Assembly: GCA_902500205.1 (NCBI GenBank)
Contig: GCA_902500205.1_4868.1
Direction: 5' to 3' (one strand)
Length of the DNA: 64,000 nucleotides
DNA from: Escherichia coli
Lineage (GTDB): Bacteria > Pseudomonadota > Gammaproteobacteria > Enterobacterales > Enterobacteriaceae
A model generated the notes under the pieces. The model was given only the letters and a program-made list of their open reading frames with translations. It did no database searches and was not told where the DNA came from. The position numbers were made by a program, and so were the translations under genes. Positions within the stretch are counted from its first letter, which is position 1, and each line of letters opens with the position of its first letter. Positions 17,910 to 62,426 of the stretch are shown piece after piece.

Positions 17910-17935
17910 ATTTCAGATATATATTACCTAGGTGA
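17910..17935 (+). promoter_or_regulatory. Phage promoter-like element, class 1 (ATTTCAGATATATATTACCTAGGTGA)
   Basis: Exact 26-mer also at 27030 and, with one mismatch, at 55847; always after a terminator and before a gene. Confidence 0.55.
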
Positions 17936-27029: not shown

Positions 27030-27055
27030 ATTTCAGATATATATTACCTAGGTGA
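27030..27055 (+). promoter_or_regulatory. Phage promoter-like element, class 1
   Basis: Identical 26-mer to 17910..17935. Confidence 0.55.
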
Positions 27056-28098: not shown

Positions 28099-28959
28099 AT
28101 GTACAGTATTACAGATTTCATCAAAAATGCGGATTTCCTCCTACCTTCCGACCACGAAGTATTGGCTAGCGATCCGTTAACCGATGCGGCCATTGTTCAG
28201 CTGGACCGGGATAAACGTCGCACTTACGTCGTGTTGGTCGAAGGAAAGAGTTATGGTCTGTCTTCTTACGACCTGGAGCAGCAGGAGCGCTTCCTCGATG
28301 AAAGCCGCAAAACGTCAATGTATAGCGCTATCTCGCGCGCGTTGTGCAAGGTAATGGCAACCGTTACAGACAGCAAAAAGCGTATCGCTGTGTTACAGGG
28401 TATCAATGCACTAACGACCAAAATCCAACAACTTGAAGGTTTCCATTGCCCACGATTGGAAGCCGCACAGAAGGATGCTAAGGGCGATGAGGCCATGGCA
28501 CTGTTTGAAGGCAATACTGTCTTTGCAACAGCTGAAGCTTGTTATCTCACCTATCCAACTTTTAACTATACGCCAATCAGCGACACCGTAGACGGGATTA
28601 AAGTAGAGAACGTCGTGCAATGGGGTCGCGCAAATCTCAAGTTTGTGATGTCCCATGAAGAAGAAAATCAAGACGGCCTTGGCCAGAAGATTCAACGTTG
28701 GTTCACGGCACGTTTGGACGCCGACTGGGAAGCGCATGTTAACGCAGAACTTCGTAAATTTCATGCAGTAGTCGCTTTGTTAAAAGAGGAGGCTCCTGCA
28801 CCGAAACAACCGAAAGCACCAGTGGTTGGTTGGACGTGTTCTGGTTGTAATCATAACCACATCGCTACAGTACCGAGAACCCATCGCTATACTTCGCAGA
28901 CAATGAACATTGCTTGTCCGGCTTGCGGCAAGATCAACGAAGTTGATTATAAACCGTAG
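28099..28959 (+). CDS. Hypothetical protein with C-terminal zinc-ribbon-like motif
   Basis: C-terminus CSGCNHNH...(x)...CPACG. Confidence 0.5.
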   Translation: MYSITDFIKNADFLLPSDHEVLASDPLTDAAIVQLDRDKRRTYVVLVEGKSYGLSSYDLEQQERFLDESRKTSMYSAISRALCKVMATVTDSKKRIAVLQGINALTTKIQQLEGFHCPRLEAAQKDAKGDEAMALFEGNTVFATAEACYLTYPTFNYTPISDTVDGIKVENVVQWGRANLKFVMSHEEENQDGLGQKIQRWFTARLDADWEAHVNAELRKFHAVVALLKEEAPAPKQPKAPVVGWTCSGCNHNHIATVPRTHRYTSQTMNIACPACGKINEVDYKP

Positions 28960-28965
28960 TAGTAC

Positions 28966-29005
28966 CCCTCTTACCCGAAGGTAAGAGGGTTTTATATTTA
29001 TTTTC
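28966..29005 (+). terminator. Rho-independent terminator
   Basis: Hairpin ccctcttacc-cgaa-ggtaagaggg plus T-rich tail. Confidence 0.7.
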
Positions 29006-29024
29006 CGAAAAGAAAATAAAAGGC

Positions 29025-29046
29025 GCTCTCTCCCGAAGGAGAGAGC
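29025..29046. other. Second GC hairpin preceded by an A-run (possible terminator for minus-strand transcripts)
   Basis: gctctctcc-cgaa-ggagagagc; A-run on + strand immediately upstream. Confidence 0.4.
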
Positions 29047-29072
29047 TTATTCACATCCACTTAGAGGTTAAC

Positions 29073-29219
29073 ATGAATACCTTTATGCAACAACTGCGTC
29101 AGCAACAGCTGAAACAAGTCGCTTTTCAACAACGTCTGCAAGAGGTTACCCGCCAACCGCAGACTTCCACCCGTACCATTAAAGGACTAGGAGGTGACAT
29201 CATCTTCAATAAGAAGTAA
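29073..29219 (+). CDS. Small Gln-rich protein, paralog A (48 aa); not in ORF track
   Basis: GAGG RBS; my translation MNTFMQQLRQQQLKQVAFQQRLQEVTRQPQTSTRTIKGLGGDIIFNKK; followed by hairpin 29228-29247. Confidence 0.45.
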   Translation: MNTFMQQLRQQQLKQVAFQQRLQEVTRQPQTSTRTIKGLGGDIIFNKK

Positions 29220-29331
29220 CACTAACCAGGGGTGTTCGAGCACCCCTTTTAACTCCCGTGACAGTATATCGGTGCATTGTGTACCACCACAGCGCAGCGA
29301 TATATTAACAACCTGCCTAAGGAGGCACTAC

Positions 29332-29478
29332 ATGGAACAACTACGTTCGCAAATACTTAACTATTACGTTAAGCAAACCCAATTCAACCAACGTGTACAA
29401 CAGTTGACTGCGCCCAAGCAGAACACTGTTCGTCGTATCAAGGGTTTAGGAGGTGAAATACTACTAAACAAAAGTTAA
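29332..29478 (+). CDS. Small Gln-rich protein, paralog B (48 aa)
   Basis: TAAGGAGG RBS; MEQLRSQILNYYVKQTQFNQRVQQLTAPKQNTVRRIKGLGGEILLNKS; about 40 percent identical to paralog A ungapped. Confidence 0.5.
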   Translation: MEQLRSQILNYYVKQTQFNQRVQQLTAPKQNTVRRIKGLGGEILLNKS

Positions 29479-29611
29479 CATGAAATAACTCTTACCCGAG
29501 TGTTCCAGCACTCGGGTAATTCCATGCATATAAATAGTTCGTCGTATTTTTTTTTGATCTCGGCAAGACGCATAAACTGCCCGTAGGGGAGCCTAAGCTC
29601 CCCAGTGTTCG

Positions 29612-31174
29612 TTAGAACAAATCATCACCCATTCCACCGGTGAAGAAGTTGATAGACGACGCTGTTACGGTTTCTTCTTTATCACAATCCCAAGGCAGGA
29701 TGCCAACATCCTGGAAAGGTATCACTGTGTAGTGATAAGACTCTTTAGTATCGATAATGGTGCGGTGCTTACCGCGTTGAACTTCTAAGAAGCTATGGCC
29801 GTTGACCACACGCTTGTTAAAATACATTTCACCATCGGCCTCGTTATCAAGGCTCGAACAACTATCGTAAAGACCACGACCAGGTAAGTTCTTACAGAAA
29901 CCTACCGGGTCTAACGCTTTTAAGCGTTTACCTTCTGGGGAAATCTGGTGTGGGGCAATTAAGAACCCACGGTTGCGTACCACTTGGATGTTACGAGCAA
30001 TACGATAAATTTCTTTGATATCACTCCCGGCAATGCCGTTGCCGTGTCCTGCTTTGCTGATTGTGCCTAAGTAGTCTGCGCGAATGCCAACAACATGATA
30101 ACCGCGACGACGTAAGTCGAGAATAAGGTCGTTGATGTAGTGCACTTTAAAATCGGAGTTGGTGTGCTTTTGGAAAACGTAGTCCCAACCGTTTGCGCGA
30201 ATCTTACCACAGAGGTAATCAGACATTGCTGTTGTGTGTGCTAACTTCTCTTCAGCGGTTGCATCCTGTGCAATGGTCATCTGTGGAACTTGTCCTTCAA
30301 AATGACCGTACAGTGCTTGATAGCCGTAAGCTAAGTTAACGTCGAGTTCGTTTTCTAAACTCAAGTCAAGAATAATTGGTTGCAGTGTGCCCTTCACATC
30401 CGTCATTACTTTCTCAGGCGTGTTGAAGATAGGAATCGATAAGCTCAGTAAGAGACTGAACAAAGACTTACAGTTAAAAGGTAACGCTGGCATTAGCCAC
30501 AGTTCTTCGGTAATCCCTTTGTTACAACCGAGCATTTGGTTAATGGCTTTCCAGCCCGTCTGCAAACCATTACCTGCAGCTTTCTTGTTAATCGAGTCGA
30601 ACACTTTAACAAACGGAGCCCGATTATCTGTAACCAGCTCACCGACCAATGATGGAATCTTATTATGAGAGCGTTCACCGAACGTAGATAGCGCCTCTTT
30701 GAGTTCGAGCACTGCGGTGTTCAGATCAACACGTGTCTCAGTTCCATTCAATGCTCCGAACGCGCGACCCATTTTTGTTTTGAGTTCGACGCTCTGTAAA
30801 CATTGACGTAATTGGAAATAATATTGAGACAGTTGTCGATTAAGATGCTCGGTACGTTTGTCTTCTTCCTCGGGCAAATCGTCTTCGAGGAATTTGGTAA
30901 TCGTATCGTATAGAGGACGTACTTGAGTGGTGGCCAGCTTCAAGCGCTTCATAACGCACGCGTGGTCGTATTCCATGCCGCCGTCTATGATAGATGTGAT
31001 AATGTCCTTGATCTCGATGAGTGCAAAGCGCTCTTCGCCATCTTCCGCATATTCCGGAAGCTTGATCTGCATCAGAACTTTTCTTATGACATCATGATCC
31101 TTGCTAGGGTCCGTCAGCATAGATTCTGTATACAGTGCGGCTAAGGCGGTTATCAACATCATTTTACTATTCAT
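29612..31174 (-). CDS. Hypothetical protein
   Basis: 520-aa ORF on minus strand; divergent from 31189 gene. Confidence 0.55.
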   Translation of the reverse strand: MNSKMMLITALAALYTESMLTDPSKDHDVIRKVLMQIKLPEYAEDGEERFALIEIKDIITSIIDGGMEYDHACVMKRLKLATTQVRPLYDTITKFLEDDLPEEEDKRTEHLNRQLSQYYFQLRQCLQSVELKTKMGRAFGALNGTETRVDLNTAVLELKEALSTFGERSHNKIPSLVGELVTDNRAPFVKVFDSINKKAAGNGLQTGWKAINQMLGCNKGITEELWLMPALPFNCKSLFSLLLSLSIPIFNTPEKVMTDVKGTLQPIILDLSLENELDVNLAYGYQALYGHFEGQVPQMTIAQDATAEEKLAHTTAMSDYLCGKIRANGWDYVFQKHTNSDFKVHYINDLILDLRRRGYHVVGIRADYLGTISKAGHGNGIAGSDIKEIYRIARNIQVVRNRGFLIAPHQISPEGKRLKALDPVGFCKNLPGRGLYDSCSSLDNEADGEMYFNKRVVNGHSFLEVQRGKHRTIIDTKESYHYTVIPFQDVGILPWDCDKEETVTASSINFFTGGMGDDLF

Positions 31175-55846: not shown

Positions 55847-55872
55847 ATTTCAGATATATATTACTTAGGTGA
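55847..55872 (+). promoter_or_regulatory. Phage promoter-like element, class 1
   Basis: ATTTCAGATATATATTACTTAGGTGA; downstream leader AATCGACTATTAATCTAAAGGAGTATT shared with 27078 copy. Confidence 0.55.
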
Positions 55873-62414: not shown

Positions 62415-62426
62415 CGCACGACTTTT

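Follow-up and report, generated by a model that had tools for sequence, protein, structure and literature searches.

The closest described counterpart of the locus analysed here lies in the Salmonella jumbo phage SPN3US, which is ~98% identical to the 64-kb window (the whole stretch of 64,000 nucleotides that we analysed). Two tandem genes of this phage, gp71 and gp72, are the same genes as the pair described below: they occupy the same place, between gp70 and the helicase gene gp73, and their products are 98-100% identical to those of the window, differing by a few substitutions only. The gene pair is thus already known, having been annotated in SPN3US since 2011 and assigned to a PHROG family, and neither the SPN3US records nor PHROGs assign gp71 or gp72 a function. 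Both proteins go unmentioned in the text and supplements of the papers on SPN3US virion mass spectrometry, a silence that is not proof of their absence from the particle; they are apparently non-virion proteins.

Single-copy orthologues occur in Machinavirus, Wellingtonvirus and other Seoulvirus-type phages, for example Machina gp83, pSal-SNUABM-04_076, pEa_SNUABM_11_00088 and SPAsTU MLDJOKPK_00090. These share with the present pair a length of 47-49 aa, the sequence QRV...(I/L/V)KGLGG(D/E)I, the cassette architecture and the helicase-convergent position, and differ from it in having one copy instead of two. A mere analogy may also be drawn with lambda N and boxB, since here too a short, basic, helix-forming peptide stands beside a conserved stem-loop in a terminator-rich region; however, the family has neither sequence similarity to such peptides nor an arginine-rich motif, and its stem-loop lies downstream of the gene, with a loop that flips orientation among relatives.

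The paralogous pair and its phage relatives

The locus comprises two small genes and one convergent neighbour:

29073..29219, plus strand: ORF-A, 48 aa, ATG start; the same gene as SPN3US gp71 (SPN3US_0071 / ACQ60_gp195); the divergent, Gln-rich "A-type" copy
29332..29478, plus strand: ORF-B, 48 aa, ATG start; the same gene as SPN3US gp72 (SPN3US_0072 / ACQ60_gp194); the "B-type" copy
29612..31174, minus strand: gene of a replicative helicase of the DnaB-like (divDNAB) type, which runs convergently to the two ORFs and adjoins the family without exception

A sequence-only reading of this DNA had proposed that the two ORFs were paralogues of about 40% ungapped identity that were missing from the ORF track. 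The paralogy is borne out, with 20 of 48 residues (42%) identical without gaps, and BLASTP aligns the two proteins at 51% identity with one 4-residue gap (E=4e-13); the shared C-terminal motif R-x-I-K-G-L-G-G-(D/E)-I is present in both, as had been noted. The two are not unannotated, as public records already contain both coding sequences (SPN3US_0071/0072 = ACQ60_gp195/gp194) as hypothetical proteins. The 48-position profile of PHROG 18219 matches residues 1-48 of each protein, at E=4.2e-27 for ORF-A and E=6.8e-27 for ORF-B. The flanking minus-strand gene, which had been called divergent, is convergent, because its stop codon faces the ORFs.

The family is narrowly distributed. It comprises 29 real clusters among 5.8 billion proteins, all from ~240-kb Seoulvirus, Machinavirus or Wellingtonvirus-type phage contigs. 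An exhaustive HMM search of 1.84e9 representatives returned three family clusters, and five other matches, considered as remote homologues, were rejected as long Q-rich or coiled-coil proteins aligned over short stretches only; IMG/VR holds only three loci with the family. In every one of at least 14 loci from three genera, the family is found immediately upstream of the helicase gene and converges with its 3' end. All the records compared for synteny (SPN3US, EC001, SPAsTU, pEa29, Machina, pSal-04, pEa43, pEa11 and the metagenomic loci L017-L024) have the gene in one conserved place, beyond the terminator of the gp70 region and converging with the divDNAB helicase. The cassette is absent from the Erskinevirus phage Stratton, and both Stratton and phiEaH2 keep the helicase gene while the small ORF is missing.

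The strict adjacency to the divDNAB gene in every family-bearing genome, and a basic charge compatible with DNA binding, would suit a replication accessory of the helicase, such as a loader-adaptor or a regulator peptide. Such a role nevertheless seems quite unlikely to us. Since Stratton and phiEaH2 have the helicase without the small ORF, the latter is not an obligatory cofactor; the helicase gene and the ORFs are not co-transcribed, because they are convergent; and there is no structural similarity to any loader. As for signs of a replication origin, there was no GC-skew inflection, and there were no tandem repeats or iterons.

Coding evidence and the signals of each cassette

The expectation that genuine genes would keep their frame in related phages, with synonymous changes favoured, was confirmed. 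dN/dS was 0.06-0.38 in the 18 of 23 pairs with an estimable dS, the remaining pairs being saturated; these low ratios show that the genes are protein-coding. The values were 0.27-0.38 for ORF-A against its relatives and 0.18-0.38 for ORF-B. Synonymous sites are near saturation, indels occur only in multiples of three, and the invariant residues G38 and P29 each use all four codons. The N-terminal half diverges fast, and the C-terminal motif is fixed. Chance ORFs in a terminator-rich non-coding spacer deserve next to no credence as an explanation: ORFs of 48 codons often arise by chance, and hairpins abound in the region, but the paralogy at E=4e-13, conservation across three genera under the dN/dS values given above and the conserved Shine-Dalgarno sites already refute this reading.

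The signals that surround the two genes are as follows:

28966..28989, plus strand: intrinsic terminator T1, a 10-bp GC stem with a tetraloop, then TTTTATATTTATTTT; it ends an early-type operon (gp66-gp70 homologues)
29025..29046, minus strand: intrinsic terminator, a 9-bp stem, then GCCTTTTATTTTCTTTT on the minus strand; 26 nt ahead of the ORF-A ATG
29063..29068, plus strand: Shine-Dalgarno of ORF-A (AGAGGT), 4 nt ahead of the ATG
29228..29247, plus strand: stem-loop after ORF-A, with a family-specific GTG-N6-CAC top, then TTTT
29299..29310, plus strand: GATATATTAACA in the A-B spacer, a candidate promoter that has only ATATATTA in common with the recurrent motif of the window
29318..29325, plus strand: Shine-Dalgarno of ORF-B (TAAGGAGG), 6 nt ahead of the ATG and partly inside a small 5-bp hairpin
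29492..29519, plus strand: conserved stem-loop after ORF-B, with an invariant GTG/CAC top and no adjacent plus-strand U-run
29520..29611, no strand assigned: conserved non-coding block (CCATGCATATAAATAG, a T9 run, GACGCATAAACTGCC), plus a hairpin at 29586-29603 just past the helicase stop codon

Two hairpins do stand upstream of ORF-A, as the suggestion of back-to-back terminators implied; the T-run of the second lies on the minus strand, which makes it a terminator for that strand. T1 is kept with compensatory changes across all related loci. The A-run and stem at 29025-29046 are kept in Seoulvirus, Machinavirus and Wellingtonvirus-type loci, with covarying stems. Going downstream from the helicase gene, this element is the first canonical terminator of the minus strand to be met, past both ORFs. 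The small plus-strand ORFs are probably overlapped antisense by the helicase 3'UTR.

An SD-like purine run is found at the equivalent position in every orthologue. The hairpins that follow the two genes are of a type (GTG-N6-CAC) that occurs in the window only after ORF-A and ORF-B, and they are unlike the usual TTCG-tetraloop terminators of the phage. The first is probably a weak plus-strand terminator. The second shows compensatory changes in 7 of 10 pairs, scores as a minus-strand instead of a plus-strand terminator site, and has a loop whose orientation flips among close relatives. The 3' half of the non-coding block beyond it is retained in Stratton, which is without the ORF. Searches for known RNA families gave nothing above noise, whether in this region, in the 20-40 kb part of the window or in loci of the Wellingtonvirus type. 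The proposal made from the sequence, of a genuine tandem pair of paralogues in which each micro-protein gene has a ribosome-binding site and a hairpin to itself, is supported.

The A-B spacer (112 nt) has no similar sequence elsewhere in the window, and it had been suggested that the sequence ahead of ORF-B resembles the "class 1" core, taken here as that of a candidate promoter. Early promoters of the phiKZ type, used by the virion RNA polymerase, are AT-rich motifs of ~10-17 nt centred near -10 (PMC7598289). The recurrent candidate early-promoter motif of the window, TTTCAGATATATATTAC, is present in three exact copies, and the sequence upstream of ORF-B matches it at 8 of 9 positions in the core and 11 of 17 overall. 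Matches to the core with at most one mismatch occur at chance frequency (15 observed against 10.3 expected in the window), which makes the resemblance weak, and in SPLA5c GATATATTAACA is altered to GATATGTTAACAG, a substitution within the core. No sigma-70 promoter was found in 28800-29700, and a motif resembling a late promoter, around the minus-strand TATG at 29522-29537, has no second occurrence in the window.

Copy number, fusion alleles and an internal Shine-Dalgarno-like string

Seven phages carry two copies, and most relatives carry one (SPAsTU, pEa29, Machina and others). In a tree and by distances, ORF-B groups with the single-copy genes of Seoulvirus, and ORF-A stands on a long separate branch. 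In 1252, EC001 and SEGD1, which belong to the SPN3US species, the single gene is an in-frame fusion of an A head and a B tail, joined exactly at a 10-nt string that both genes contain:

29188..29197, plus strand: TAGGAGGTGA in ORF-A, codons L39-G40-G41-D42; the point where the A/B fusion alleles cross over
29447..29456, plus strand: TAGGAGGTGA in ORF-B, codons L39-G40-G41-E42

We hold with high confidence that the gene is real, under purifying selection, narrowly distributed and dispensable in some lineages, and that its copy number shifts by recombination at TAGGAGGTGA. A +1 frameshift fusion of A with B was rejected: four of five two-copy phages have the B frame open over 47 codons upstream, into ORF-A, but MET_P1 has a stop, and such an open frame has a chance probability of ~0.11-0.13.

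The same string is a near-perfect Shine-Dalgarno sequence, complementary to the 3' end of 16S rRNA. In the whole window, AGGRGGTGA occurs only twice, in ORF-A and in ORF-B. Across 11 lineages, TAGGRGGTGA shows reduced synonymous variation, with G40 always GGR and G41 always GGT, unlike the codons of G38, P29 and R21, which vary freely. This pattern suggests that part of the apparent protein-motif conservation at LGG(D/E) may be a constraint on RNA or DNA; the codon-bias statistic loses strength when the gene itself is taken as background. The idea that the internal string serves an ORF downstream was rejected, there being no ATG, GTG or TTG 4-12 nt 3' of it in any lineage. An antisense overlapping gene was likewise rejected as the cause of the codon choice: its frame is often open, but it is broken in pEa29, pEa11, L020 and L024 and is not conserved as a protein. 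Neither RNAalifold nor single-sequence folds gave a conserved pairing partner for the string.

These observations bear on whether the cassette acts chiefly as RNA. At the convergent junction, a cis-acting RNA device might adjust termination or stability, and the peptide would be secondary. Such a device would combine translation of a short ORF with its strong SD-like string, located 18-21 nt ahead of the stop, and with the stem-loop and the antisense overlap with the helicase 3'UTR. The reduced synonymous variation and rarity of the string, the conserved and cassette-specific stem-loop and the placing of the first canonical minus-strand terminator beyond the ORFs favour such a device. We nonetheless judge it decidedly improbable: the entire ORF shows conserved amino acids and low dN/dS, even where codon choice is free, the SD-like string has neither a suitably spaced start codon nor a conserved pairing partner, the loop flips orientation among relatives, and the codon-bias statistic is weaker against the gene's own background.

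A related proposal, to which we assign a similarly small probability, is that the cassette is dual-coded and serves as a translation-coupled switch at the convergent junction; alternatively, the micro-protein would be a minimal RNA binder of its own stem-loop or of SD-like GGAGG sites. On this proposal, the invariant L-G-G-(D/E) codons would owe their conservation to a 16S-complementary UAGGRGGUGA, the antisense strand would present an anti-SD mimic, UCACCUCCUA, and the string would act together with the GUG-N6-CAC stem-loop and the antisense helicase 3'UTR.

Protein properties and possible roles

The proteins of the family are strongly basic (pI 10.4-12, net charge +4 to +9). High pI is common in phage micro-proteins and is no proof of nucleic-acid binding. 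The predicted fold has a helix at residues 2-26, a short Pro-containing linker and low-confidence strands at 35-38 and 41-44, which would form a Gly-turn beta-hairpin with the (I/L/V)KGLGG(D/E)I sequence; model pLDDT is 67 overall and ~56-58 in the C-terminal hairpin. The hydrophobic moment of the helix is not above that of shuffled sequences, so that no amphipathicity is indicated. Pfam, NCBIfam and PDB sequence searches gave no significant match for the family. In what was a weak test given the low-confidence model (pLDDT 67), Foldseek returned nothing from PDB and, from BFVD, only the family member A0A2U8UXE6.

Two resemblances to known RNA-binding or ribosomal proteins were examined and rejected. 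The top PDB sequence match was to uL29, through a QFNxRxQ helix segment (E=0.52, not significant); hhalign gave probabilities of 1.6% and 0.3% over 12-13 columns, and there was no PF00831 match. In the KH domain, the GXXG loop (hydrophobic-I-G-x-x-G-x-x-I) lies between two helices of a ~70-aa fold. The sequence I-K-G-L-G-G-D-I-I of our basic proteins resembles it in having a G-x-x-G flanked by aliphatic residues, but 48 aa is too short for the domain, no KH profile was found at E<=10 in 20 members, and the motif is modelled as a beta-turn.

The sequence-only reading had also raised the possibility of a modified-peptide precursor. In its widest form, the gene would encode a modified or signalling peptide (a RiPP, a double-glycine leader peptide or an arbitrium-like peptide) that is cut after GG. 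All that speaks for this is a GG pair seven residues from the C-terminus, and this pair lies outside an LSxxELxxIxGG context. Within ~1.5 kb of the ORFs, the divDNAB helicase alone has a Pfam match, and in eight related loci no modification enzyme, C39 peptidase/ABC transporter or TPR receptor was matched by Pfam over that distance. The pattern of conservation is moreover the reverse of that expected, the N-terminal part varying and the heptapeptide after GG being conserved (I43 and K47 are invariant); the tail has neither Cys nor a Ser/Thr-rich core, and the hydrophilic, Gln-rich N-terminus has no signal peptide or hydrophobic stretch. An AimP of the arbitrium type was rejected on account of this N-terminus and the lack of a neighbour with a TPR match. 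A precursor peptide is therefore very improbable, and the suggestion is not supported.

Small early phage proteins often have roles in host takeover or anti-defence, and this was the main idea of the sequence-only reading. An effector of this kind, a micro-protein that inhibits a host defence or replication factor and whose duplication and divergence reflect an arms race, is a possibility of some weight, if on balance a rather unlikely one. It would agree with an accessory gene that is absent from Erskinevirus and variable in copy number, with the fast-diverging N-terminal half beside the fixed C-terminal motif, with the apparently non-virion nature of the proteins, and with their location shortly after an operon that has an early-promoter-like motif at its head (27031). 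However, a strong terminator separates the ORFs from that early operon, and the gene goes with the 3' end of the helicase gene instead of a variable accessory island. Every dN/dS estimate falls well short of 1 and gives no sign of positive selection, and there is no likeness to known proteins of this class; Pfam is silent, as is PADLOC-DB, which gave no family at E<=1 and is a weak test because it covers defence systems rather than anti-defence proteins.

The explanation that we propose is that the locus holds two diverged tandem copies of one accessory protein-coding gene, specific to a small clade of jumbo phages of enterobacteria, whose product is a very basic binding module; taken as a whole, it stands in our judgement about evenly balanced between right and wrong. 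Each copy is a self-contained cassette of a Shine-Dalgarno site, 48 codons and a stem-loop topped by GTG-N6-CAC, set at a convergent junction where a plus-strand operon meets a lone minus-strand helicase gene. The binding module itself is a tentative part of this proposal, and we are inclined to doubt it: nucleic acid (most likely RNA) or an acidic partner would be bound through the basic hairpin at the C-terminus, which is invariant, and specificity would come from the N-terminal helix, which evolves fast. Two copies might then provide two specificities, and one chimeric copy might be sufficient.

The overall finding is real and tidy, and of modest interest. Its value lies in providing a clean and tractable case of a micro-protein conserved among jumbo phages, present once or twice per genome and marked by a sharply defined motif that does not vary. 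The natural one-copy, two-copy, fusion and null genotypes, in otherwise near-identical phages, constitute a ready-made allelic series, and SPN3US already serves as a genetic model. If functional, the conservation at nucleotide level of a Shine-Dalgarno string within the coding sequence would matter more widely, for regulation at convergent junctions in giant phages, and the probable antisense overlap with the helicase 3'UTR, if functional, would likewise bear on such regulation.

Two annotated micro-protein genes

The window is ~98% identical to the Salmonella jumbo phage SPN3US (Seoulvirus), and its two small ORFs, ORF-A and ORF-B, are SPN3US_0071 and SPN3US_0072 (alias ACQ60_gp195 and ACQ60_gp194), positioned between gp70 and the DnaB-like helicase gene gp73. 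Both CDS are labelled 'hypothetical protein' in GenBank and RefSeq; the gene pair is already known, being annotated though uncharacterised.

Features of the small-ORF region (coordinates, strand where assigned, description)
28099-28959, plus: gp70 homologue, 286 aa, PHROG 10180
28966-28989, plus: T1, hairpin followed by a T-run, terminator of the gp66-gp70 operon
29025-29046, minus: hairpin preceded by an A-run, terminator
29073-29219, plus: ORF-A, 48 codons, ATG start; SD site AGAGGT 4 nt upstream
29228-29247: GC-rich stem-loop 3' of ORF-A
29332-29478, plus: ORF-B, 48 codons, ATG start; SD site TAAGGAGG 6 nt upstream
29492-29519: GC-rich stem-loop 3' of ORF-B
29612-31174, minus: helicase gp73 homologue, convergent with the small ORFs

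The sequence-only reading was correct in describing paired 48-aa paralogs, each with its own ribosome-binding site and hairpin and with a common C-terminal R-x-IKGLGG(D/E)I motif. The products are identical at 20 of 48 positions (42%) without gaps, BLASTP aligns them at 51% identity (E=4e-13) with one 4-residue gap, and both end in R-x-I-K-G-L-G-G-(D/E)-I-x-x-N-K-x. It had the neighbouring gene wrongly as divergent: the helicase gene, the sole minus-strand gene between ~15 and 39 kb of the window, converges on the small ORFs. On the other side, gp70 of SPN3US has been reported to be essential and non-virion (Thomas et al. 2016; PMC5105663). Its homologue in the window carries CxxC...CxxC at the C-terminus, with weak zinc-ribbon and treble-clef matches, and the corresponding region of Machinavirus is divided into 238-aa and 130-aa genes.

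The reading frames, whose conservation had been left for comparison with related phages, are kept there, with a preference for synonymous change: by the Nei-Gojobori method, dN/dS falls at 0.06-0.38 in 18 of 23 pairs, i.e., in each pair with estimable dS, synonymous sites being saturated (pS up to 0.9) in the other five, A versus B among them. Indels among orthologues are whole codons, the SD site is kept in all orthologues, and the invariant residues P29 and G38 are each encoded by all four codons, and R21 by three. An antisense overlapping gene was excluded, as no antisense frame is consistently open, as was a +1 frame joining A to B, which is broken in MET_P1. The ORF-B frame is open for 47 codons further upstream (29191-29331, plus strand), where it runs over the last part of ORF-A in the +1 frame and yields the 94-aa GTG ORF 29194-29478 of the ORF list; in MET_P1 this extension is interrupted by a stop, and therefore the open frame is probably due to chance.

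Within both ORFs, L39-G40-G41-(D/E)42 is encoded by YTA-GGR-GGT-GAN, giving TAGGRGGTGA, a 9-10-nt complement of the 16S rRNA 3' end in which the GGA-to-GGG change keeps the pairing via G.U wobble. Across 11 representative lineages, the codon for G40 is GGA or GGG and that for G41 GGT without exception, and L39 is YTA in 10, whereas the third position of the comparably invariant G38, P29 and R21 takes three or four different bases. For comparison, GGR makes up 22% of Gly codons in the window's long ORFs, ~30% in neighbouring small genes and 14% for the first codon of Gly-Gly pairs; YTA makes up 20% of Leu codons in long ORFs and ~35% in the family outside the motif. On either strand of the 64-kb window, AGGRGGTGA occurs only in ORF-A and ORF-B. 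The string has no start codon 4-12 nt downstream, and no conserved pairing partner was found. Resting on few and related lineages, this codon bias is suggestive rather than proven, and the conservation of 'IKGLGG' may in part reflect a nucleic-acid constraint. That the locus is mainly a cis-acting RNA device is unlikely, given protein-level selection over the whole length.

Distribution, duplication and fusion

Among 5.8 billion proteins, a profile search gave 29 genuine family clusters, each of 44-49 aa, and three further matches, to SPFM records that are mis-assembled. When 1.84 billion representatives were searched exhaustively with HMMER, three family clusters only were retrieved, together with five long proteins matching over short Q-rich stretches, and IMG/VR held three family loci. 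All long contigs with family members are phage genomes of ~240 kb, and the phages are Seoulvirus, Machinavirus and Wellingtonvirus-type, infecting Salmonella, Escherichia, Proteus and Erwinia. At each locus examined, the ORF lies ~113 nt past the preceding gene and is convergent with the helicase gene (divDNAB). Erskinevirus Stratton has an equal helicase and flanks, yet only a 109-nt spacer without the ORF, and the gene is therefore dispensable in the Stratton lineage; this retention of the helicase without the ORF also makes it improbable that the protein is a helicase accessory. In Wellingtonvirus-type loci, a further 250-400 bp of non-coding DNA, rich in hairpins and without an Rfam match, separates the cassette (SD site, ORF and stem-loop) from the helicase gene (L008 2579-2980, L020 1641-2037, L024 1651-1891).

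Two copies are present in the window phage, SPN3US, Proteus phage 7, SPLA1a, SPLA3, SPLA5c and MET_P1_082_240, and a single copy in ~15 other SPN3US-species records and in more distant phages, e.g., SPAsTU, pEa29 and Machina. DNA alignment shows that phage 1252 and EC001/SEGD1 carry in-frame chimeras, in which the A head up to ...CTAGGAGGTGA is followed by the B tail and B 3' flank. These are precise 259-bp deletions with the 10-nt string TAGGAGGTGA as junction, which, along with the hairpin top, is the longest A/B identity in cassettes otherwise ~46% identical. Since the B tails differ between the two fusion types, the alignments suggest at least two fusion events. Assembly problems in SPFM and Lh1B (OK428535) can mislead copy-number counts: several SPFM records (LR5359xx: SPFM1, 5-10, 12, 14, 15, 20) match the region as scrambled pieces, up to 40 of them, and give artefactual chimeric 65-68-aa ORFs, and Lh1B is uninformative, as an N run (NNNNN, L015 around 575-580) takes exactly the place expected for copy B.

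In a distance tree, ORF-B clusters with the single-copy genes of SPAsTU and the metagenomic loci L017 and L019 (protein p-distance 0.23-0.31), and ORF-A stands alone on a long branch, 0.55 from B. Of the ancestral context, the 5' side is retained at ORF-A and the 3' side at ORF-B. ORF-A either diverged fast after duplication or came from a diverged relative, 48 residues being too few to choose.

Hairpins, probable antisense transcription and promoter motifs

The two hairpins upstream of ORF-A have a common AT-rich tract and are conserved in all genera, with covarying stems. The sole RNAalifold consensus structure in the transcript is the stem-loop 3' of each family member, in which compensatory changes affect 7 of 10 pairs, with the top three pairs (G-C, U-A, G-C) invariant. 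This GTG-N6-CAC stem-loop is unlike the phage's usual TTCG-tetraloop terminators and occurs in the window only 3' of ORF-A and ORF-B, so that ORF and stem-loop must have been duplicated together, as a unit.

The stem-loop of ORF-B lacks a plus-strand U-run. No U-run accompanies the hairpin at 29586-29603 either, which directly follows the stop codon of the helicase gene. Downstream of that gene on the minus strand, a canonical terminator is first met at 29025-29046, ~570 nt beyond 29586-29611 and past ORF-B and ORF-A alike; for the window's other minus-strand gene, the terminator comes 25 nt past the stop. Because of this terminator position, we infer that helicase transcripts probably run, as 3'UTR, antisense over the gp72 and gp71 cassettes.

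Palindromic hairpin loops are inverted between phages >95% identical (window versus L001, L011, L014, L007 and L027): the T1 loop (28976-28979) is CGAA in the window and TTCG in SPN3US, the post-ORF-B loop (29501-29510) TTCCAG versus CTGGAA in SPN3US and 1252, and the post-ORF-A loop (29236-29241) TTCGAG versus CTCGAA in SPLA1a; in other relatives, Huxley has TTACAG and pEa43 CTGTAA. Such flips are small inversions that recur, with the stem arms as mediators. The non-coding block 29520-29585, CCATGCATATAAATAG...T9...GACGCATAAACTGCC, is conserved across three genera, and Stratton, although without the ORF, retains its 3' half. Read on the minus strand, the block gives TTATATGCATGG and includes TATG, the phiKZ late-promoter core; the longer TATG-bearing motif does not recur in the window.

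The motif TTTCAGATATATATTAC occurs exactly three times in the window, all on the plus strand (17911-17927, 27031-27047 and 55848-55864; 0.16 expected by chance), with a fourth, degenerate copy at 62424. Its phiKZ-like TATATTAC core makes it a likely early (virion RNAP) promoter motif; AT-rich early-promoter motifs of this kind have been described in jumbo phages that encode RNAP (PMC7598289). At 27031, the motif stands at the head of the operon of small genes that ends at gp70 and T1. The promoter likeness claimed for the sequence before ORF-B, GATATATTAACA (29299-29310), is limited to ATATATTA, and near-matches to TTTCAGATATATATTAC are at chance frequency (15 observed versus 10.3 expected); SPLA5c has a substitution within this sequence. 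No sigma-70-like promoter is present at the small-ORF region.

The protein and its possible role

Both proteins match PHROG 18219 end to end (~1e-27); Pfam, NCBIfam and PADLOC gave no meaningful match. The whole family is strongly basic (pI 10.4-12.0, net charge +4 to +9). M1, Q20, R21, K37, G38, L39, G40, G41, I43 and K47 are invariant, as is P29 in a codon alignment of 14 lineages, and hydrophobic residues are conserved at 4, 8, 18, 22 and 25. From the family alignment, AlphaFold2 predicted a helix (2-26), a disordered linker (28-33) and a beta-hairpin (35-38/41-44) turning at G40-G41, with low confidence (mean pLDDT 67; ~57 for the C-terminal part). Amphipathicity of the helix was not significant. 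Foldseek with this model retrieved only a family member from BFVD and nothing from the PDB; the best PDB sequence match, uL29 (E=0.52), was tested further and rejected. SPN3US virion proteomics papers and supplements do not mention gp71 or gp72 despite good expected tryptic peptides, which points to a non-virion protein.

Our best mechanistic guess, a tentative one, is a small basic binding module: its invariant C-terminal Gly-turn hairpin would bind nucleic acid or an acidic partner, with specificity adjusted by the variable helix. The data are also compatible with an effector of host takeover or anti-defence, although we consider this doubtful. A modified or signalling peptide precursor is very improbable, as no gene within ~1.5 kb has a Pfam match to a modification enzyme and the tail past GG is conserved. 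The sequence-only interpretation is partly supported: it holds for the real tandem micro-protein genes, whereas the modified peptide is unsupported, the promoter likeness weak and the neighbour convergent.

It is firmly established that the micro-protein gene is real, under selection, accessory and narrow in distribution, and that the window has it as two diverged cassettes. The natural allelic series of copy-number genotypes adds slightly to the interest of the pair, and the internal SD-like constraint, still unexplained, raises it slightly as well.
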